This document shows, one piece after another, positions 1 to 9,376 of a DNA stretch of 9,376 nucleotides. A program made the translations under genes and the position numbers. The stretch is from Nitrosarchaeum sp. (GTDB taxonomy: Archaea > Thermoproteota > Nitrososphaeria > Nitrososphaerales > Nitrosopumilaceae). Position 1 is the first letter of the stretch. Each line of letters starts with the position of its first letter. The DNA is taken from NCBI GenBank assembly GCA_023265135.1, contig JAHFUM010000004.1:83036-92411 (forward strand), in the 5' to 3' direction. Below the pieces are notes generated by a model. It searched no databases. It was given only the letters and a program-made list of their open reading frames with translations, and was not told the DNA's origin.

Positions 1-327
1 TTTCAAATAAATAAGAACTTGGGTCATTCAAAAAATAGAGAATTATCAGACATGCAAAAATGAAGAATCTTTTAGAGATACTCGAGAAACAGATTCACAT
101 GGTGTTCGACTAGAGCCCAACAAGAGATCGCCCTGTTTCTCGGTGGTAATATATGGTATTTTTGACTAAAAAGGAACGCGTATAATTTGTTAGACAAGCG
201 ATTAACAATTGTTACCAGATAGTGCCATGGCAGTCTTTGAGAATAATTTTAGAATATTTAACTGAAATAGAGTGACCATACCCTTTGAGGAATTTTACGT
301 TGTAATGGTTTTGTTTACCTCTAAGTG

Positions 328-774
328 TCATAAAACACTCTTGGTAAATGTTAAAGATGATTGTTCAAATCCAATACTTTTGTAAAACTTGTGAGAGTCC
401 TTTCTTTGATTTCCTGACTCTAATCTTATTCTGTAACAATCTTTCTTTTTGGCAAGATCTATGCAATAATGCATCAATTTTTTACCAATGCCTAAACTCC
501 TGAGTTGTTTTGTCACTATTAATTCAGGAATGTACATCTCAAGTTTTGCACGATTTAGTCGCCTCAGAAGAATTATGCTTACGAATCCTACAATTTTTGA
601 ATCTTGCTTTGCAACTAAAATTGTTTTTTGTGAGTCTGAAAAATAATCCTTAATCTTATTTTTGAATATTTTGATTTCTTTTTCATCTATTGGTATTGGT
701 CTGTCAAGATCGTAAAGAAGTTCAAGAATAAATGGAATGTCTTTGTCAGTTGCTTTTACTATTGAAATTTCCAT
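328..774 (-). CDS. GNAT-family N-acetyltransferase
   Basis: 148-aa ORF with the GNAT acetyl-CoA motif A (ELIVTKQLRSLGIGKKLM, i.e. Q/R-x-x-G-x-G) and the C-terminal SHKFYKSIGFE motif. Size is typical of single-domain GNATs. Confidence 0.85.
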   Translation of the reverse strand: MEISIVKATDKDIPFILELLYDLDRPIPIDEKEIKIFKNKIKDYFSDSQKTILVAKQDSKIVGFVSIILLRRLNRAKLEMYIPELIVTKQLRSLGIGKKLMHYCIDLAKKKDCYRIRLESGNQRKDSHKFYKSIGFEQSSLTFTKSVL

Positions 775-797
775 GTATAGTAAATTGCATATAGAAT

Positions 798-810
798 TTT
801 AAACACTTTT
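798..810 (-). promoter_or_regulatory. TATA-like TTTAAA with upstream A-rich BRE-like stretch for the GNAT gene
   Basis: On the minus strand, AAAAGTG-TTTAAA reads from 810 down to 798. The first T of TTTAAA (803) is 29 nt from the A of the ATG (774), the same geometry as the + strand cassettes but without their extended sequence. Confidence 0.45.
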
Positions 811-840
811 CCTAAATCCTTAAGTTAATACAAAAATTAG
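809..840 (+). promoter_or_regulatory. Promoter cassette copy 1 (BRE/TATA-like, CTTAAG 819-824)
   Basis: ttcctaaatccttaagttaatacaaaaattag lies directly before ATG 841. CTTAAG is 22 nt from ATG 841 and 28 nt from the in-frame ATG 847. Confidence 0.6.
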
Positions 841-1254
841 ATGGTTATGGGGAATGCAGGTCTTGGAATAACTGTAGTATTCTTTTGGGCTTTGGCCACT
901 TTTTTATTTATTACGGGTGAATATGGATATTGGTTCATAGTTGGGATTATAGGATTAGTATCATCATTTATTTACGCTGGTCAAAGTTCTCTCAAAAAAG
1001 AAGAAAAAAAATACATTTTAAGTTCACTTCCACAATACTCTAGTTCTGCATCTCCTGTATCTGAATATGATTTACAAAATAATTTTACAAATTTTTCATG
1101 GCGCGAAATGGAAGAACTGACAGGAAAATTATTTGAGAAAAAAGGGTATTCAGTTGAAGTCACTAAATCTACAGGAGATTTTGGGTTGATGTTTATGCCA
1201 AAAAAGCAATGCGATTCCAATTACAGAAAATACGATAGGAATTACAAGTTCTGA
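841..1254 (+). CDS. 2-TM membrane protein with the N-terminal part of an Mrr-like (Mrr_cat, PD-(D/E)xK) restriction endonuclease domain; probably truncated or frameshifted
   Basis: Two hydrophobic helices (GLGITVVFFWALATFLFITG, YWFIVGIIGLVSSFIYAG) are followed by FSWREMEELTGKLFEKKGYSVEVTKSTGDFG, which matches the start of Mrr_cat (..FE.lv..ll...GY.vevt..sgDgG). The expected G-(I/V)-D continuation (VDVYAKK) appears only in the -1 frame from nt 1185. The ORF stops about 23 codons later and lacks the rest of the domain. The true start may be ATG 847. Confidence 0.5.
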   Translation: MVMGNAGLGITVVFFWALATFLFITGEYGYWFIVGIIGLVSSFIYAGQSSLKKEEKKYILSSLPQYSSSASPVSEYDLQNNFTNFSWREMEELTGKLFEKKGYSVEVTKSTGDFGLMFMPKKQCDSNYRKYDRNYKF

Positions 1255-1332
1255 TTGATATGCCACACTAACTTTGTATGATCTTATTTTCTTAAGCTTT
1301 ACGTCAACACTGCATGTCTTCCCTCATAATTC

Positions 1333-1380
1333 GGGGGGATACCATTTTTATTCTCTGTCAATAAAAAATAGAATGCCCCC
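1333..1380. terminator. Possible bidirectional termination region between convergent genes
   Basis: A G6 run (1333-1338) and a C5 run (1376-1380) flank an inner ATTCT/AGAAT inverted repeat. There is a T5 tract on + (1345-1349) and a T6 tract on - (complement of A6 at 1363-1368). Archaeal termination typically uses oligo-T tracts. Confidence 0.3.
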
Positions 1381-1398
1381 AAAATAGGCAGTAAAACA

Positions 1399-1413
1399 TG
1401 ACGCTTGTCGTAA
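1399..1413 (+). repeat. Left copy of a 15-nt direct repeat, tgacgcttGtcgtaa
   Basis: 14 of 15 nt are identical to 2477-2491, in the same orientation. Each copy is followed by a (G/T)TTAAG-containing cassette-like sequence. Confidence 0.7.
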
Positions 1414-1445
1414 AAGTTAAGAAAACAATAGATTAGAAAAATTAA
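1414..1445 (+). promoter_or_regulatory. Orphan, degenerate promoter-cassette copy (GTTAAG 1416-1421) with no downstream + strand ORF
   Basis: aaagttaagaaaacaatagattagaaaaatt aligns with small indels to the cassette core (cTTAAGttcatACAAaatTTAGAAAAtc). The position 29 nt downstream has no start codon and runs antisense into the 3' end of the minus-strand protease gene. Confidence 0.4.
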
Positions 1446-3141: not shown

Positions 3142-4413
3142 GTGAAAATTCAGATTTTGTTGATACTGGTTATTCTAATCAGTGTAATCTCAATCAATAA
3201 TGCATTTGCAGATAGAAATTGCAAAACGGATTATGTGTGTGTCCTTCCTGGAGATTTTTTAAAATATGCGTCACATCCAACGGTGGGTTATAGTTTCGAA
3301 GATGGTTCAGGATGCTGCATAGGTAATCTTACTTATGCATTTGAGGATTTTATAGACATCAATCACATTAAAGTAAATTTAAAATTCGATAGTGAAGATG
3401 GATCACATCATTATTCCCAAAAAAGAGTAATGGATATTTCAACTGGCCTATTAGGATCTCCAGAAAAGATAACTGAACCGATCTTTGAACACATGTTATT
3501 TGGGAATGAAATACCACATATTCTTTATTCCATTAGCCCAACCTTGTTAACATATGACAAAACGTTAGCAAGAAACGAAGGAGTGGTGGATATTACAATC
3601 GAGGAAGGGAATTGGGGTGCAGATAGAAAAACAATCTTTCTAAAAAGCCCTGGCCAAACCAATACAAATGGTTTTGATGAACCTGCTCTTTTTTCGGGAT
3701 ATGAAATTAATGTTTTCTTTGATAAAGAAACACACGTGATAGTTTATTCAGCTAAAATAGATCATCAAACTTCTGCCACATATTACGATAGTCATTATGC
3801 TTTAGTCGAGACCAATGTTTTTGGGTCTAACAATAATAGTGGGGAATCATCAAAAACAGCAGTTCCACAATTAAGCACCAATAAAATCACAATTCCATCA
3901 TCTGGTAAATCTGAGGAAATAATTCTATACGGTAATGTTGCTAATCATAAAAGAGGCACTCCTTTGGCTATCACTTTAATTAATCCTGATGATACTGTGC
4001 AAACTTTTGCTGCAGTTCTAACTGATAATGGTGATTATCGAACTGCCTTCTCAATAAATGCAGATTCACCATCTGGAGTTTATAAAATTCAATTGTTTCA
4101 CAACGGAGCCAATGTTGGAACAGTTTCATTTATTGCTTCTAAAAATATTCCTGATTGGATTAAAAACAATGCAAAGTGGTGGTCAGGTGGACAAATAAAA
4201 GATTCAGAATTTCTTAAAGGAATTGAATATTTGGTTCAAAAAAATATTATTCATATTAATAAAAATACTCAAGAATCAGACAATCAGAGCAAAAATATTC
4301 CTGATTGGATTAAAAACAATGCAAAGTGGTGGTCTGAAGGGCTAATCACCGAAGATGATTTTCTCAAAGGAATTGAATTTCTGGTACACCAAGGAATAAT
4401 CATAGTAAATTAG
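3142..4413 (+). CDS. Secreted protein of unknown function with a central beta-rich region and two C-terminal W-rich 40-aa modules
   Basis: The ORF is open from GTG 3118, but that codon overlaps the CTTAAG core. GTG 3142 lies at the canonical 29-nt spacing and gives a clean signal peptide, (M)KIQILLILVILISVISINNAFA/DRN. The C-terminus carries KNIPDWIKNNAKWWS..(D/E)FLKGIE(Y/F)LV...II twice. Confidence 0.75.
   Translation: MKIQILLILVILISVISINNAFADRNCKTDYVCVLPGDFLKYASHPTVGYSFEDGSGCCIGNLTYAFEDFIDINHIKVNLKFDSEDGSHHYSQKRVMDISTGLLGSPEKITEPIFEHMLFGNEIPHILYSISPTLLTYDKTLARNEGVVDITIEEGNWGADRKTIFLKSPGQTNTNGFDEPALFSGYEINVFFDKETHVIVYSAKIDHQTSATYYDSHYALVETNVFGSNNNSGESSKTAVPQLSTNKITIPSSGKSEEIILYGNVANHKRGTPLAITLINPDDTVQTFAAVLTDNGDYRTAFSINADSPSGVYKIQLFHNGANVGTVSFIASKNIPDWIKNNAKWWSGGQIKDSEFLKGIEYLVQKNIIHINKNTQESDNQSKNIPDWIKNNAKWWSEGLITEDDFLKGIEFLVHQGIIIVN
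4141..4413 (+). repeat. Intragenic 150-bp-period duplication encoding the W-rich module
   Basis: 4141-4184 and 4291-4334 are identical over 44 nt. The rest of the two modules is clearly related but much more diverged. Confidence 0.85.
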
Positions 4414-4425
4414 ATTTCAAACTAT

Positions 4426-4464
4426 TTCCTAAAACCTTAAGTTCATACAATATTTAGAAAACAT
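4426..4464 (+). promoter_or_regulatory. Promoter cassette copy (CTTAAG 4436-4441)
   Basis: ttcctaaaaccttaagttcatacaatatttagaaaacat. CTTAAG is 29 nt before ATG 4465. Confidence 0.65.
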
Positions 4465-4662
4465 ATGAAAATCTGGATCAAAGTAATAATTGCAGGCATC
4501 ATAATTTTCTTTATAGGTGTCTTTTACATAACTGCCGCAGGCGGTGCAATGTTTATGGCCGGTTTTCCAGGTTTAATAATTTCATTAATCGGAGGTGTAG
4601 TGTTTGTGGTTGGTGTTTTAGCTGGATTACAACGCGGTTACAGACGTATGATGGGAGAATAA
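4465..4662 (+). CDS. Small (65 aa) two-helix membrane protein, unknown function
   Basis: Two hydrophobic, Gly-rich spans (IKVIIAGIIIFFIGVFYITAAGG and FPGLIISLIGGVVFVVGVLAGL) with a basic tail RGYRRMMGE. It has its own cassette at canonical spacing. Confidence 0.6.
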   Translation: MKIWIKVIIAGIIIFFIGVFYITAAGGAMFMAGFPGLIISLIGGVVFVVGVLAGLQRGYRRMMGE

Positions 4663-4675
4663 CTCTAAAATTTGT

Positions 4676-4722
4676 TCTCCTAAAAACTTAAGTTCATACA
4701 AAATTAAGAGAATTTCAGATTA
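4676..4722 (+). promoter_or_regulatory. Promoter cassette copy (CTTAAG 4687-4692), long-spacer variant
   Basis: tctcctaaaaacttaagttcatacaaaattaagagaatttcagatta. CTTAAG is 36 nt before ATG 4723, and no alternative in-frame start exists because of a TAA at 4705-4707. Confidence 0.6.
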
Positions 4723-5106
4723 ATGAAAACTATCATAATTATCATATTAGCCATCATAGTCAGTCTAGTGATTATAGGAGGAGGATTAGGAGCCTTTATT
4801 TCAAATGTTGGGGAAGGTACAGAAAAAATAAAACAAAATGAGCAAGTACAAGAAATAACAAGTAAAATTTCATCTAAACTCAATCCAGATAAAGTTGTAA
4901 AGTCTGAAAGCGCTGTCATTCAAGATAAGCCTGTAGAGACTCAAGCAAGTCAAAATAACTGTGATTCATCATATCCTGATGTTTGTATTGCTCCATATCC
5001 ACCAGACTTGGATTGTGGGGAAATTTCGTACAAAAACTTTAGAGTATTATCACCAGACCCACACAGATTTGATGGAGATCATGATGGAATAGGTTGTGAA
5101 AAATAA
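4723..5106 (+). CDS. Membrane-anchored protein with C-terminal Excalibur-type calcium-binding domain
   Basis: N-terminal anchor (TIIIIILAIIVSLVIIGGGLGAFI). The C-terminal CDSSYPDVCIAPYPPDLDCGEISYKNFRVLSPDPHRFDGDHDGIGCE contains the Excalibur signature DxDxDGxxCE and the commonly associated PPDLDCGDI..F.V...DPH..D block. Confidence 0.75.
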   Translation: MKTIIIIILAIIVSLVIIGGGLGAFISNVGEGTEKIKQNEQVQEITSKISSKLNPDKVVKSESAVIQDKPVETQASQNNCDSSYPDVCIAPYPPDLDCGEISYKNFRVLSPDPHRFDGDHDGIGCEK

Positions 5107-5112
5107 CTCTAT

Positions 5113-5150
5113 TTCTAAATCCTTAAGTTTTTAAAAAATTTAGAAAATCA
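5113..5150 (+). promoter_or_regulatory. Promoter cassette copy (CTTAAG 5122-5127) with perfect 8-bp dyad arms
   Basis: ttctaaatccttaagtttttaaaaaatttagaaaatca. TTCTAAAT (5113-5120) and ATTTAGAA (5138-5145) are exact reverse complements. CTTAAG is 29 nt before TTG 5151. Confidence 0.65.
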
Positions 5151-5801
5151 TTGAAAAAAATTCTGTTTGTACCTTTGGGGTTGTTTTTGGTTGGCGTAGT
5201 TGCATCCTTGTATCTTAGTGGTATCTTTGAATTTAACCAAGAAAATTTAAACAAATCAATTCAAATTTCAAATCCATTACAAATGTATAAAATTGATAGC
5301 ACGTGTGAACTCGCATTTGCGATTCAAACTAATCATGAAACTGGATATAATGGAGCATTACACCTAGATAAAACTCGATTTGAAAATGATCTAAAGGAGA
5401 TAAGCCAAGAAAAACAGAAGATGTTAGAAGAACATGATAGTCTTTGGGGTTATACAGCAGAAGGCAAACAAGCAATTGCAAATATTTGGGAAAAATTATA
5501 TGAATTACAAATTGATAATATAATGACTTACAATTCAATACACCCAAAATTAAGAGATTCTGTTAAATCAGTCGTAGAAAACATGTTTCAAGCACAACCA
5601 AAATCAACAGAAGAGCAAATCACTGCGATGAATGTTATATTTTTAATTCAATCTGAACCGTACAAAGAGGATCCTGAATGTGGTAAAAAATTTCATGAAC
5701 GTTTTGGAAATGAAACATTCAAAATGCTGAAACAAATTTTTGGCGAAGATAGAGCAACGATTGAATATGATAAAATAAAGAAAATTATCTACGGTAATTG
5801 A
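5151..5801 (+). CDS. N-terminally anchored, predominantly helical protein of unknown function
   Basis: 216-aa ORF. The TTG start at canonical cassette spacing gives the signal/anchor (M)KKILFVPLGLFLVGVVASLYLSG, and the first in-frame ATG would delete it. I recognise no family. Confidence 0.65.
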   Translation: MKKILFVPLGLFLVGVVASLYLSGIFEFNQENLNKSIQISNPLQMYKIDSTCELAFAIQTNHETGYNGALHLDKTRFENDLKEISQEKQKMLEEHDSLWGYTAEGKQAIANIWEKLYELQIDNIMTYNSIHPKLRDSVKSVVENMFQAQPKSTEEQITAMNVIFLIQSEPYKEDPECGKKFHERFGNETFKMLKQIFGEDRATIEYDKIKKIIYGN

Positions 5802-5895
5802 TTTTTAATCTATTTGTTTTCTAAAAATAAGGAGTTTCGATGGAGAGATATGTCTCATACATCACTTTAGTGCTAAATTAAAAATAAAGACTTTA

Positions 5896-5934
5896 TTCCT
5901 AAATCCTTAAGTTCATACAAAATTCAACAAACCC
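5896..5934 (+). promoter_or_regulatory. Promoter cassette copy (CTTAAG 5906-5911)
   Basis: ttcctaaatccttaagttcatacaaaattcaacaaaccc. CTTAAG is 29 nt before ATG 5935. The TTTAGAAAA right arm is not conserved in this copy. Confidence 0.65.
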
Positions 5935-6375
5935 ATGAGTTCTAAACAGACTGCAAATAAGGCTCTACAAATTTTAGTAAAATCAAATAAAGGATTTCAC
6001 CTTGTCTCAAAAAAGGAACATGGAGTATTGCTTGTTGCATTTGCACGGTATAATAAAGTGCTCTATGGACAAGCCTATGATTTAATCAAATGCAAGAAAA
6101 AAATTAATTTTGAAAATGAAAAAGAAGTAGTTGACAATTTACGCCATATCACAATATACGAAATAAAATCCACGAACAGAAAAGACATGTCTAAGGATTT
6201 CAAGAATTATTTTTTTGATTTAACTACAGCAGAACTCCTAGTTGCACAAAACCTTGGAAAGCAGTTCAAATTTGCTTTTGTAAATACAACCACAAAACAA
6301 TTCATCGAATTATCCTTAGAAGAAGTATTTGCAAAATCTAAAAAACTATACCCTAAAATGGCAATTAGATTCTAA
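5935..6375 (+). CDS. Small cytoplasmic protein with a possible PD-(D/E)xK nuclease-like fold (DUF3883/Mrr-like pattern)
   Basis: 146 aa with no hydrophobic N-terminus. The pattern AYDLI ... ITIYEIKST ... FFDLTTAELLVAQNLGKQFKFAFVN resembles GyDi...iEVKst...f.lt.nE...a...g..y.ly.V of restriction-endonuclease-like domains. The family call is tentative. Confidence 0.6.
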   Translation: MSSKQTANKALQILVKSNKGFHLVSKKEHGVLLVAFARYNKVLYGQAYDLIKCKKKINFENEKEVVDNLRHITIYEIKSTNRKDMSKDFKNYFFDLTTAELLVAQNLGKQFKFAFVNTTTKQFIELSLEEVFAKSKKLYPKMAIRF

Positions 6376-6383
6376 ATTCTTTT

Positions 6384-6421
6384 TGTGTAAATCCTTAAGT
6401 TTTTAGAATATTAAACAAACT
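6384..6421 (+). promoter_or_regulatory. Promoter cassette copy (CTTAAG 6394-6399)
   Basis: tgtgtaaatccttaagtttttagaatattaaacaaact. CTTAAG is 28 nt before ATG 6422. A distal perfect inverted repeat, ATTCTAAA (6369-6376, including the upstream stop codon) and TTTAGAAT (6402-6409), is also present. Confidence 0.6.
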
Positions 6422-7450
6422 ATGCGTAAAGCACCTGCAATAGGAATAACCATCCTGTTAATAATTCTAATTTTTGGAGTACTGCTTGCATATTCGTATA
6501 CTCAGCTTTCAGTCACTCTTGATGATGTAAGATTTCATAGTATAGATTGGGCATCACTTTCATGGTCTACTTTGTTGAAGTTAGGTCTTAGTACATTAAC
6601 AGGAAATTGGTTGGGGGCAGCATTTGAGTTAATTGATGGGGTGAATCTAAATTTCATATTTGGATTAACAAACAATGGTCTTCTTCCAGTCTATATCCCT
6701 GATCTATCGTATGATATTTTGATAAATGACGTAAACATGGGAAGAGGCCACAGTGATGTCAATATTACAATCAATCCAGGACAAACACAACAAATCACAA
6801 CATTTCAAAATATCAAAAAAGATAGTTTGAGTCCAGCAGTATATTCAATTGTAAGTACAAAAGGCATATTGGATATTAAAGTAAAAGGAACAGCATACTT
6901 TCAATTCTTTGGTCTAAGTGTTCCAATTCCATTTGAATCATCAAAACAAATTTCAATTTACGATGAAATCAAAAATAAATTAAATTCTCAAATTCAAAAG
7001 AATAAACAGGAGCAAAAAAATTCTGTAATTTCTACTGTTGGAAAGTCACTCTCTAGTGCAATAAATTCAATCGCAAATGAATTGTTTGGATCTAAAGACT
7101 TGAATCTTTCATTGAAAGGACAAACAATAGTAGATTCAACTTTCAAAATAAGTCCAGGAACATATCGCTCTGTCTATTTTACATTAAGTTGTACTGCAAA
7201 TGTTCAAGGCGGTTTTATTGCAAGTGCTGTACTTGGTGATGATATTGTTGTCTATATTCTTGATGAGAGTGCATTCAACCAGTATGAAAGCGGACAAAAT
7301 ACATCTACATATTACAACAGCAACAAGGTAGAATCTGGAGTATTTGATGTAACTTTATCTCCAGGAAAATATCATATCGTAATGTCAAATACCTATTCAA
7401 CTTTTTCCACTAAAACAGTGCAATTACAGGCAGCTACTTCATGTATATGA
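6422..7450 (+). CDS. Membrane-anchored LEA_2/WHy-like (LEA14/NDR1-HIN1 type) domain protein with a C-terminal beta-sandwich-like domain
   Basis: N-terminal anchor (AIGITILLIILIFGVLLAY). FIFGLTNNGLLPVYIPDLSYDILINDVNMGRGHSDVNITINPGQTQQITT fits the LEA_2 pattern (l.v.NpN.f.l.i..l.ydl.lng..lg.g......i.a.g...v). The C-terminal 110 aa end in PGKYHIVMSNTYSTFSTKTVQL, reminiscent of the GOLD/emp24 G.Y.fcf.N..s....k.v motif (weak). Confidence 0.7.
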   Translation: MRKAPAIGITILLIILIFGVLLAYSYTQLSVTLDDVRFHSIDWASLSWSTLLKLGLSTLTGNWLGAAFELIDGVNLNFIFGLTNNGLLPVYIPDLSYDILINDVNMGRGHSDVNITINPGQTQQITTFQNIKKDSLSPAVYSIVSTKGILDIKVKGTAYFQFFGLSVPIPFESSKQISIYDEIKNKLNSQIQKNKQEQKNSVISTVGKSLSSAINSIANELFGSKDLNLSLKGQTIVDSTFKISPGTYRSVYFTLSCTANVQGGFIASAVLGDDIVVYILDESAFNQYESGQNTSTYYNSNKVESGVFDVTLSPGKYHIVMSNTYSTFSTKTVQLQAATSCI

Positions 7451-7526
7451 TTTGGAAAAAAACACAGAACAAACTAGAAATAAAATATTAGAATTTGCTG
7501 GGATTAAAAGCATATTCTAAATTCTA

Positions 7527-7565
7527 TTCCTAAATACTTAAGTTCATAGAATATTTAGAAAATCA
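7527..7565 (+). promoter_or_regulatory. Promoter cassette copy (CTTAAG 7537-7542)
   Basis: ttcctaaatacttaagttcatagaatatttagaaaatca. The arms TCCTAAATA (7528-7536) and TATTTAGAA (7552-7560) are complementary at 8 of 9 positions. CTTAAG is 29 nt before TTG 7566. Confidence 0.65.
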
Positions 7566-9194
7566 TTGAAGATTGTTTTAATTTTATTTTCAATATCCGT
7601 GTTTATTATTCCATTAAGTGTTTATGGGGACATTCCAGATATAGCATACAAAGATCATGCGTATTCAATGAAGACGTATTACTATGATTTAAAAAATGAT
7701 TTAAAAAATGGGATAACAACTGCGGAAAAGGCATTATCTGCTGCATCTTTTGAAAACTCTGAGGCTAAAAAAAAGATAGATGGAGCTTGGGGAATTAGAT
7801 CTATGGCTTGGGTATCTAATGGGAAAATTGAATCTAATTTGGGACAAACAGAAGAGTCTCTAAGTAACAAACACTATAAAAATTCGTACGATAAACTATT
7901 GCAAATTGACAAGAATGCATATTCACTAAAAGATAATCTTTATGCAACACTAAAGGAAATAAAAAATGCTCAAGGGTTAGAAAAAAAATATCAGGAAAGC
8001 AAAAAAACATGCATATTATTTTGGTGTTATGGAGACACAGATACATACAGTAAGGTTGACTCGAACATTCAAGATTTAGAATCAAAATTAAAAATAATTG
8101 AGAGCAAACTAGTACAAATAAAATCTGAGAAAAACAATGTAATTCAATCGATTCAAAAATATGAAATTACACAAAAAGATCTTCAACTTAAAAAATCAGA
8201 GACTCTAAGAAAACAAGAGAAATATAAGGCAGACCAGGAATTACGTGATCAAAAATACAAAGATGAACTTGCGCGTAAAAGATTAGAAGAACAAAATCAA
8301 AAAGAAAATCAGCGTCTTTTAGATCAGAACAATATTGAAATTGAAAAACAAGATATAATCAAAGAAGCTGAGTGGAGTCCTTTAATTCGAGGATTGATCA
8401 AAGGCCAGTTGAATTATTACGTGAATGAACTTCCTAGTTATTCAAGCTCAGATGTTAAGTCAAGTGTAGAATCATTGGCAAGTTTTATGGATGGCAAAAC
8501 ACCCCAAGGTGTAAGACTTAATCGTGTGTATAGTAGCGATTCAGCAGATCTTACATTTGATTGGGCAAAAGATTATCAAGAAGGAGCCATAGGAAGACAG
8601 ATTGGAAAATATTTGCTCATAGGCCTTGGAACAAATGGTTGTGATGGAAGTTGGAAACCATTTAACGCCAATACAGTTTACAAGATAATGTGGCACGAAA
8701 TGGGACATGCAATGGGATTTGCTCATTCCAAAGACAGCACAAACATTATGTACGAACTTGGAACTGGTAATGATTTTAGCATTGATTATGATAAGACCAT
8801 TAATCTAAAAGATGGATATGCAATATCTATTCCATTCTGTGATGGTGCAGGACAATATTCTTACGAAATTGAAAGCGATAGTAAATACACAGGATTTTCT
8901 GTCTATGCTGTACCGCCAACTATCCATTTTCAGGACATTGTAGATGGACATCCTGATAAAATATATCCTTGTGATGGCGGTAAAGGTTTTACACGTTTTT
9001 CATCTACTTGTTCAGTTGAAGATGGGGCGTATCTCTATATCGAGAATCCGTTAGATACTATTGTAACTTCAATGAATATTCATGTAAAAATTTATGATTT
9101 AACTGATGAAAGTCCAAAGAATATGGAATGGGATTCATCATATCAATACTTCCCATCGGAACATCTTGATTATGTCAGAAATCTATTTCGATAA
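7566..9194 (+). CDS. Secreted multidomain metzincin: signal peptide, helical N-domain, K/E/Q-rich coiled coil, matrixin-like zinc protease domain, C-terminal beta-rich domain
   Basis: The TTG start gives the signal peptide (M)KIVLILFSISVFIIPLSVYG/D. Residues around 170-260 are heptad-like and charged (KLKIIESKLVQIKSEKNN...RKRLEEQNQKENQRLLDQ). The zinc motif HEMGHAMGFAH (HExxHxxGxxH) is followed by the Met-turn NIMY. Confidence 0.8.
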   Translation: MKIVLILFSISVFIIPLSVYGDIPDIAYKDHAYSMKTYYYDLKNDLKNGITTAEKALSAASFENSEAKKKIDGAWGIRSMAWVSNGKIESNLGQTEESLSNKHYKNSYDKLLQIDKNAYSLKDNLYATLKEIKNAQGLEKKYQESKKTCILFWCYGDTDTYSKVDSNIQDLESKLKIIESKLVQIKSEKNNVIQSIQKYEITQKDLQLKKSETLRKQEKYKADQELRDQKYKDELARKRLEEQNQKENQRLLDQNNIEIEKQDIIKEAEWSPLIRGLIKGQLNYYVNELPSYSSSDVKSSVESLASFMDGKTPQGVRLNRVYSSDSADLTFDWAKDYQEGAIGRQIGKYLLIGLGTNGCDGSWKPFNANTVYKIMWHEMGHAMGFAHSKDSTNIMYELGTGNDFSIDYDKTINLKDGYAISIPFCDGAGQYSYEIESDSKYTGFSVYAVPPTIHFQDIVDGHPDKIYPCDGGKGFTRFSSTCSVEDGAYLYIENPLDTIVTSMNIHVKIYDLTDESPKNMEWDSSYQYFPSEHLDYVRNLFR

Positions 9195-9207
9195 AATATA
9201 CAATATC

Positions 9208-9376
9208 TATTCTATTCATAAATAATATAATAAAAAATATGATATTCTATTCATAAATAATATAATAAAAAATATGATATTCTATTCATAAATAATATAA
9301 TAAAAAATATGATATTCTATTCATAAATAATATAATAAAAAATATGATATTCTATTCATAAATAATATAATAAAAA
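9208..9376. repeat. Perfect 35-bp tandem repeat, 4 full copies plus 29 nt, truncated by the window end
   Basis: The unit tattctattcataaataatataataaaaaatatga occurs at 9208, 9243, 9278, 9313 and 9348 (partial). All copies are identical and contiguous with no spacers. A degenerate partial copy lies at 9195-9207. Confidence 0.95.

Follow-up and report, generated by a model that had tools for sequence, protein, structure and literature searches.

A 35-nt tandem array of variable copy number at the cargo/core junction of a thaumarchaeal family-1 casposon

The window, i.e. the whole 9,376-nt stretch of DNA analysed here, ends in a tandem array of a 35-nt unit that is a genuine minisatellite with variable copy number. 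From position 1370 on, the window is the left part of a family-1 casposon of ~18.3 kb from a Nitrosopumilales-type archaeon, and the array lies ~7.8 kb inside this element, between variable cargo and conserved core. Compared across mobile elements, the unit emerges as a discrete and strongly conserved cis-element, in which the 5' half of a cassette found ahead of cargo genes (at the position expected of BRE and TATA box) is fused to an A-rich tail. Such units may buffer transcription between two convergent modules of the casposon.

Variable copy number of the array

Tandem Repeats Finder (period 35, score 338) delimits 4.83 head-to-tail copies of TATTCTATTCATAAATAATATAATAAAAAATATGA at 100% identity, and an exact search recovers four full units plus a 29-nt partial unit that runs up to the last window base (0 expected, 200 shuffles), which confirms the perfect array of at least 4.8 copies reported in the preliminary description. 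It starts 13 nt past the stop codon (9192–9194) of the 542-aa ORF (Table 1). We reached a 23,675-bp ENA contig (ERZ27279942 k141_8178559; L001, L010, L012 and L083 are views of it) via the 342-aa protein of the window. This contig agrees with window 6307–9271 at every base (2,965 identical flanking bases), yet contains only 1.83 copies, leaving the repeat between ...ATAATAAAAA and TAAAATTAAAAACG. Its 64-nt array is shorter than k = 141 and is spanned by single k-mers, which rules out collapse as the origin of the short allele. Logan k = 31 unitigs of SRR14366796 have identical flanks and end 30 nt into the array, both from the left (L011) and from the right (L013). A de Bruijn simulation yields these stops only when the reads contain 2.83 copies or more; with 1.83 copies, the assembly would pass through the array. 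The contig and the simulated stops together imply at least two alleles, one of 1.83 copies and one of at least 2.83 to 4.83 copies.

Across assemblies with identical flanks, copy number is therefore 1.83, at least 2.83 and at least 4.83, bearing out the variation that had been suspected. Head-to-tail units with unequal copy number in otherwise identical alleles define a variable-number tandem repeat (minisatellite). Recent expansion, proposed earlier from the perfect identity of the copies, is borne out by that identity together with the unequal copy number between assemblies; the perfect window copies, set against the diverged units of a related casposon (L081, below), suggest that a single unit was recently amplified in place, through slippage or unequal exchange. 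That an assembler made or collapsed the extra copies, named beforehand as a refutation, is scarcely credible: the array does reach the window edge, and tandem repeats break short-read assemblies (the Logan contigs and the contig of another relative, L084, end inside the array), but independent unitigs from raw reads require at least 2.83 copies, the 1.83-copy allele is real as well, and related elements from other samples contain 2 to 4 units. The window end is not a k = 141 unitig break, for which simulation predicts a stop 140 nt into the array (169 nt observed); the cut is probably arbitrary. The downstream core proteins are also encoded on a 113-kb NCBI contig.

Table 1. Features of the window, in window coordinates
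Feature	Position	Strand	Remark
Seventh cassette copy, inside the neighbouring left element	802–852		
TIR of the neighbouring casposon-like element on the left	1297–1344	-	tandem integration
Casposon target / target-site duplication (TSD)	1345–1369	.	13-bp core ATTCTCTGTCAAT at 1350–1362; repeated at the other casposon end
Left terminal inverted repeat (TIR) of the array-bearing casposon	1370–1416	+	AGAATGCCCCC...CTTGTCGTAAAAG; partner TIR L012 9456–9501
Cassette upstream of the 65-aa gene	4419–4469	+	
Cassette upstream of the 127-aa gene	4670–4720	+	
Cassette upstream of the 216-aa gene	5105–5155	+	
Cassette upstream of the 146-aa gene	5889–5939	+	
Cassette upstream of the 342-aa gene	6377–6427	+	
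Promoter-type cassette upstream of the 542-aa gene	7520–7570	+	5' half AATTCTATTCCTAAATA (7520–7536), homologue of the array unit
Last cargo gene, 542-aa secreted matrixin-like (Peptidase_M10) protein	7566–9194	+	convergent with the 299-aa core gene past the window
Degenerate lead-in AATATACAATATC, from the stop codon to the first full unit	9195–9207	+	partly like the unit end
Tandem array of TATTCTATTCATAAATAATATAATAAAAAATATGA, 4.83 perfect copies	9208–9376	+	cut by the window end; sequence, Tandem Repeats Finder

The casposon and its cargo/core junction

All of the family-1 casposon features that we tested are present in the array-bearing element. The two TIRs have AGAATGCCCCC...TGACGCTTGTCGTAAA in common and align with those of five related casposons (L006, L007, L008 and L014 among them), and these TIR-bearing relatives sit in Nitrosotalea and Thaumarchaeota MAGs. 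TTTTTATTCTCTGTCAATAAAAA occurs as a TSD at both ends, with a core that reads ATTGACAGAGAAT, i.e. A1, A11 and T13 after TTT. The right end lies directly past a 157-aa gene and reads, in successive blocks, ...GGGGGGATTTCCC, TTTTTATTGACAGAGAATAAAAAT and AGAATGCCCCCTATTTG...CTTGTCGTAAAG, an architecture like that at window 1297–1416. The blocks of TIR plus TSD are at window 1345–1416 and at L012 9431–9501, the latter about 10 kb past the window. The TIR end (TTCTA) and the 13-bp duplication fit the rules that passages of one study give for the N. koreensis family-1 casposase (TTT leader, 13-bp duplication with A1, A11 and T13; PMC8464041).

Gene content is of the same type. Past the array, the ENA contig continues with a 223-nt AT-rich spacer, a convergent 299-aa gene, a 125-aa gene and a 624-aa protein-primed PolB (pPolB), followed in order by a DUF4062/STAND NTPase, 746-aa and 363-aa genes, a 362-aa Cas1 and the 157-aa gene. 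PolB matches PF03175 (DNA_pol_B_2, E = 2.5e-24), and its relatives in Nitrosotalea and Thaumarchaeota MAGs are 61–78% identical. The Cas1 (PF01867) lacks extra domains, and its closest named matches are the Cas1 proteins of Nitrosarchaeum, Nitrosotenuis and Nitrosopumilus. The 125-aa gene, a putative terminal protein, abuts polB in L001, L014, L081, L082 and L005–L007; conserved small genes directly upstream of polB are a family-1 trait according to passages of two casposon papers (PMC4046053, PMC6563490). Gene order agrees with that of the bona fide casposon in L007, a textbook case that lies integrated at the guaA 3' end and has a direct repeat of 20 nt. The array casposon carries as cargo the genes for two matrixin-like proteases, a bPH/SHOCT protein, a LEA_2 protein and small membrane proteins.

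Three casposons form a tandem row here, namely the left element (window 1–1344), the array casposon and a complete-looking right one with its own Cas1 and pPolB; tandem integration is known for NitNF5-C1/C2 from passages of the 2019 paper (PMC6563490). Window 1297–1416 is a head-to-head junction of two casposon ends around the 25-nt target/TSD. Defence-type or accessory genes occur in the array casposon (the DUF4062/STAND NTPase and its 746-aa partner, L012 1–9455 region) and in relatives (GmrSD_N and DNA methylases in L081, TIR/NACHT-pentapeptide proteins in L082), and the adjacent second casposon (L012 12218–16250 region) encodes PAPS-reductase-like, ParB_N, PIN and other genes. Inside the 431-aa gene, a 98-nt direct repeat (window 4141–4238 and 4291–4388, 83% identical, 150 nt apart) encodes a duplicated C-terminal module, NIPDWIKNNAKWWS.G.I...FLKGIE.LV.

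The element adds a new member to the family-1 casposons already known. It resembles the thaumarchaeal, pPolB-encoding NitAR1-C1 and NitNF5-C1/C2, as passages of three papers describe them (PMC4046053, PMC6563490, PMC8464041), in its compact Cas1, its protein-primed PolB and the small gene before polB, in the TTCTA TIR end, the 13-bp TSD (A1, A11, T13; TTT leader) and tandem integration at one target, and in variable cargo that includes defence-type genes. It differs from them in lying at the large end of the size range (~18.3 kb) and in its 8-kb cargo of secreted proteins with a common promoter cassette.

Neither as a casposon terminus nor as a TIR can the array be understood, given the true TIR/TSD blocks at both ends of the element. 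An internal degenerate TIR or target in the spacer, and a likeness of unit and TSD, were also considered and rejected, as local alignments scored 22–29, within the range of shuffles (mean 21–24, maximum 34). The boundary role once proposed for the array therefore changes: what it marks is the border between cargo and core modules, and the edges of the island are the TIR/TSD blocks at 1345–1416 and ~10 kb past the window.

At this border transcription units converge. A 3'-3' junction was found in all five unit-bearing contexts (L001, L002, L003, L081 and L084), and no co-directional ORF follows the array in any of them. Extension past the window edge identifies the convergent 299-aa gene beyond the 223-nt spacer as the downstream partner. 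An ordinary or phase-variable promoter for a downstream gene, as first suggested, is thus not supported, given five convergent junctions out of five and what comes next, the spacer and the 3' end of the 299-aa gene. L001 and L081 show no conservation in the sequence just past the last unit, so that no conserved transcript start is evident there. Each 35-nt unit reads TTTTTT (T6) on the minus strand, and a minus-strand gene ends about 20 to 470 nt upstream in all five contexts. Archaeal oligo-T terminators consist of at least five T on the coding strand downstream of a gene; on the minus strand, the units would qualify as such by their sequence. In L001, a transcript from about 26 nt past the last TATA-like box would almost at once meet T6.

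The spacer itself contains many T-runs on both strands and a terminator-like hairpin. At L001 2966–3187 it is a conserved AT-rich stretch with short AAAAC-N4-GTTTT palindromes that persist in L081 with other loops; the bidirectional terminator-like hairpin (GCATC-TTTTT-GATGC) is confined to L001 and lacks conservation in L081. A non-coding RNA in the spacer was rejected on the absence of an Rfam match, folding z-scores of only -1.7 and -2.3 and the unconserved L001 hairpin. The last codons of the 299-aa gene (FINNKKI) consist of an inverted unit core, TTCATAAATAATAAAAAAATA, so that copies of the motif bracket the spacer in inverted orientation. The 299-aa protein has no match in Pfam or the PDB, and its AlphaFold model is unreliable (pLDDT 40).

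Conservation of the unit and homology to the cargo cassettes

The array recurs in relatives. In L081, a related casposon from another sample (Cas1 81% identical), four 34-nt units occupy the homologous place, next to a homologous 302-aa gene and a homologous spacer. The cargo beyond differs, with a GmrSD-like gene (GmrSD_N) in L081 versus the Peptidase_M10 protease in the array casposon. A third relative, L084 (303-aa protein, 76% identical), has the same unit; its contig ends in the array, and the cargo side is not seen. Between L001 and L081, 41 consecutive array columns are identical, compared with 69% identity in the 299-aa gene, 67% in pPolB and 68% in the aligned spacer. At 68% per-site identity, such a run has a probability of about 1e-7.

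Outside these casposons, the exact 29-nt unit core occurs in tandem in two JGI metagenome contigs, L002 and L003, with unrelated genes. In L003, 2.7 units follow a distant Cas1 gene, on which the gene of a degraded Cas4-like nuclease converges. L002 encodes a DNA methylase and contains about two units together with about eight copies of an 11-nt sub-repeat. By BLASTN, the array is the sole sequence common to L002/L003 and the casposons; by BLASTP, the proteins in common are only the distant Cas1 (28–48%, short stretches) and a methyltransferase fragment.

Several details of these contigs deserve record. The 11-nt sub-repeat of L002 (TATAATAAAAA, opposite strand TTTTTATTATA; 1850–1984, ~8 copies) lies beside one unit copy, with more degenerate unit-like copies 150–250 nt further on (2093–2190). 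In L003, the Cas4-like PD-(D/E)xK nuclease gene (928–1475) converges on the Cas1 gene and seems frameshifted, with only ORF pieces of 31–53 aa left. The L003 Cas1 has a long C-terminal extension and is ~30–35% identical to family-1 casposases, and this Cas1 may come from another kind of Cas1 element.

Searches with the 35-mer gave 0 matches in GTDB genome contigs, and the 29-mer and the degenerate core gave 0 in IMG/VR; the 21-mer and the 16-mer cassette pattern returned isolated single matches only, which we treated as chance. With its core absent from GTDB representative genomes and IMG/VR, the unit is not a common satellite, and the refutation that the preliminary description had envisaged (a genome-wide satellite) does not apply.

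The first half of the unit is homologous to a sequence ahead of the cargo genes. Seven cassettes of ~51 nt, TTCCTAAATCCTTAAGTTCATACAAAATTTAGAAA, occupy most of the short gaps between cargo genes (Table 1); searches of the casposon core and of related loci detected no further copy. The CTTAAG of the cassettes is flanked by a CTAAAT...ATTTAG inverted repeat; it starts 29 nt ahead of the start codon in four cassettes and 22, 28 and 36 nt ahead in the other three. The reported match of ATTCTATTCATAAATA to window 7521–7536 at 15 of 16 positions is correct. In L081, units 1 and 2 have C for A, so that AATTCTATTCCTAAATA equals window 7520–7536 at 17 of 17 positions (0 expected, shuffles), a match that argues for homology between the first half of the unit and the 5' half of the cassette, not chance.

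An archaeal core promoter has a TATA-like octamer about 26 nt upstream of the transcription start, with a BRE before it. In the 29-nt cassettes, CTAAATA, to which CATAAATA of the unit is homologous, starts about -36 from the start codon. The 299-aa gene has a canonical TTTAAATA that starts at -35 and is conserved in L084. This like spacing would place the cassette 5' half at the expected TATA position, with the BRE presumably upstream. The idea of an amplified BRE/TATA module accordingly stands in part: homology to the cassette 5' half holds and a TATA position is plausible, while a promoter for a downstream gene is not supported. Our literature search found nothing usable on a thaumarchaeal promoter consensus. 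The remainder of the unit, ATATAATAAAAAATAT, is not in the cassette and is equally conserved; it is A-rich, with T6 on the opposite strand. The unit has no significant secondary structure (folding z-scores -0.25 and -0.83) and no Rfam match.

Candidate roles of the array and comparison with known systems

Four readings of the array were ranked, and the first of them is a variable minisatellite at the cargo/core junction that would serve as orphan promoter and, on the opposite strand, as terminator, and so as a buffer or insulator. We give it about an even chance, a grade that includes its well-supported descriptive part; the functional step is one we infer from sequence features. Shifts in copy number would arise when perfect units slip during replication or recombine unequally. 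Each unit would be an orphan core-promoter module (a candidate TBP/TFB site) aimed into the spacer and, on the opposite strand, an oligo-T terminator for transcription leaving the core. Jointly, the units could then keep transcription of the two convergent modules apart, as a buffer or insulator. The unit, common to several mobile elements, would also be the point where cargo differs between relatives. Several observations count against the buffer: the lack of a co-directional gene in all five contexts weighs on its promoter part, extra terminators are not obviously needed beside a spacer already rich in T-runs and with a hairpin, and a terminator role leaves the perfect conservation of the non-T positions unexplained. 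The missing structure and Rfam match of the unit were likewise counted against it, as were the lack of conservation past the last unit and the T6 run that an L001 transcript would meet so early.

A neutral origin is unlikely, if the best of the other readings. The array would then descend from a former cargo cassette that lost its gene and of which only the decayed front half is left, a functionless sequence that grows and shrinks by slippage. Perfect window copies, which indicate very recent expansion, are in keeping with this, as are the slippage-prone AT-rich DNA, the lack of a downstream gene and a unit whose length and phase vary by locus (35, 34 and 29 nt, and the 11-nt sub-repeat). It is hard to reconcile, however, with the 41-nt identity between L001 and L081 in the midst of genes and spacer at 67–69% (~1e-7 at 68% per-site identity), and with a core kept at one position in three casposons and found also in two unrelated elements. 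If the array is only a slippage-prone remnant, the lesson is a smaller one, that such arrays break short-read assemblies of casposons.

The units may instead be iterons, binding sites for a DNA-binding protein of the element or the host (e.g. the 299-aa protein) with a role in replication, segregation or regulation; we consider this somewhat less likely still. The core is conserved over 26–41 nt, more than a TATA box needs, and the array is linked to the 299-aa gene and spacer in all three casposons. Compact casposons have short CATAAAT-type repeats just inside the left TIR (L008), and other repeat clusters follow the homologous gene at the same place in L014, L082 and L005. Against such a role, L002 and L003 have the unit without detectable homologues of the casposon core except the distant Cas1, no Rep-type gene lies nearby, and the 299-aa protein offers neither a domain or structure match nor a usable model.

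Quite improbable, in our estimate, is a recombination joint, in which unit and cassette 5' halves would provide homology for swaps of promoter plus gene among co-resident elements, with the array as a landing pad at the edge of the conserved core. On this account, to which we assign equally low odds when stated in full, the unit would be a dedicated cis-element of thaumarchaeal mobile elements, both promoter-type module and joint for cassette capture or exchange at the core edge. Homology between L001 and L081 stops inside the array, with unrelated cargo beyond; a related sequence stands ahead of every cargo gene, and the cassette also occurs in the neighbouring element (window 802). The unit is, moreover, the only sequence that the casposons have in common with L002 or L003. 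Yet the comparison of cargo-side junctions covers just two (the contig of L084 stops inside the array), no site-specific recombinase was identified, and the unit fails the family-1 casposase target rules given in passages of PMC8464041, with a TSD likeness not above shuffles. In function, a joint of this kind would resemble the attachment site of an integron, except that no site-specific recombinase would be dedicated to it. Were capture or exchange real, array copy number could tune the frequency of exchange or the insulation of cargo from core.

The array is a tandem repeat of a known general kind, and three systems invite comparison. Bacterial contingency (phase-variation) loci have copy-number-variable tandem repeats of 1–7-nt units in or near promoters. 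The array is like them in its perfect head-to-tail units, its unequal copy number between near-identical genomes and its core-promoter sequence, but its unit is 35 nt long (a whole BRE/TATA module), no switchable gene lies downstream, and it belongs to an archaeon and sits inside a transposon. Protein-primed replicons have sub-terminal repeats or protein-binding arrays (phi29 p6 sites, factor sites in adenovirus ITRs, linear plasmids). Replication by a protein-primed PolB and the short repeats just inside the TIR of compact relatives are points of likeness; here, in contrast, the array is ~7.8 kb from the nearest TIR, and the unit also occurs in elements without pPolB. CRISPR repeat arrays, which are related by evolution to the target duplications of casposons, likewise consist of direct repeats of similar length (35 nt here), in this case within an element that encodes a Cas1 homologue. 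The units here nevertheless abut without spacers and are neither palindromic nor structured, and a CRISPR array was rejected for lack of unique spacers between them.

Casposons are thought to be the source of the CRISPR adaptation machinery. To our knowledge, almost nothing is known of their non-coding DNA beyond TIRs and target site. The locus offers a handle on two questions, how convergent casposon modules are transcribed and how cargo is acquired, and the live polymorphism in an environmental casposon, along with the tandem row of three, is a sign of recent activity. A term search of the 2014 casposon paper found neither 'tandem repeat' nor 'non-coding', and no such array is mentioned in passages of the 2019 and 2021 papers (PMC4046053, PMC6563490, PMC8464041). 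Within the scope of these passages, a conserved, copy-number-variable promoter-type array at a casposon cargo/core junction, common to other mobile elements, was not found described. What makes it notable is the conserved cis-element and where this lies, more than the repeat as such.

Short-repeat clusters of other kinds take the place of array and spacer in further family-1 casposons (L014 8656–8890, L082 11120–11317 and L005 1100–1620), made of TTACAG/GTAACAG repeats, of CATTTAG/CTAAATG in both orientations or of GCGC-containing repeats. Family-1 casposons in general may have a repeat-rich non-coding block beside the gene that precedes the 125-aa/pPolB pair. In L008, three copies of TTTACGCATAAAT lie next to the TIR (3277–3340).
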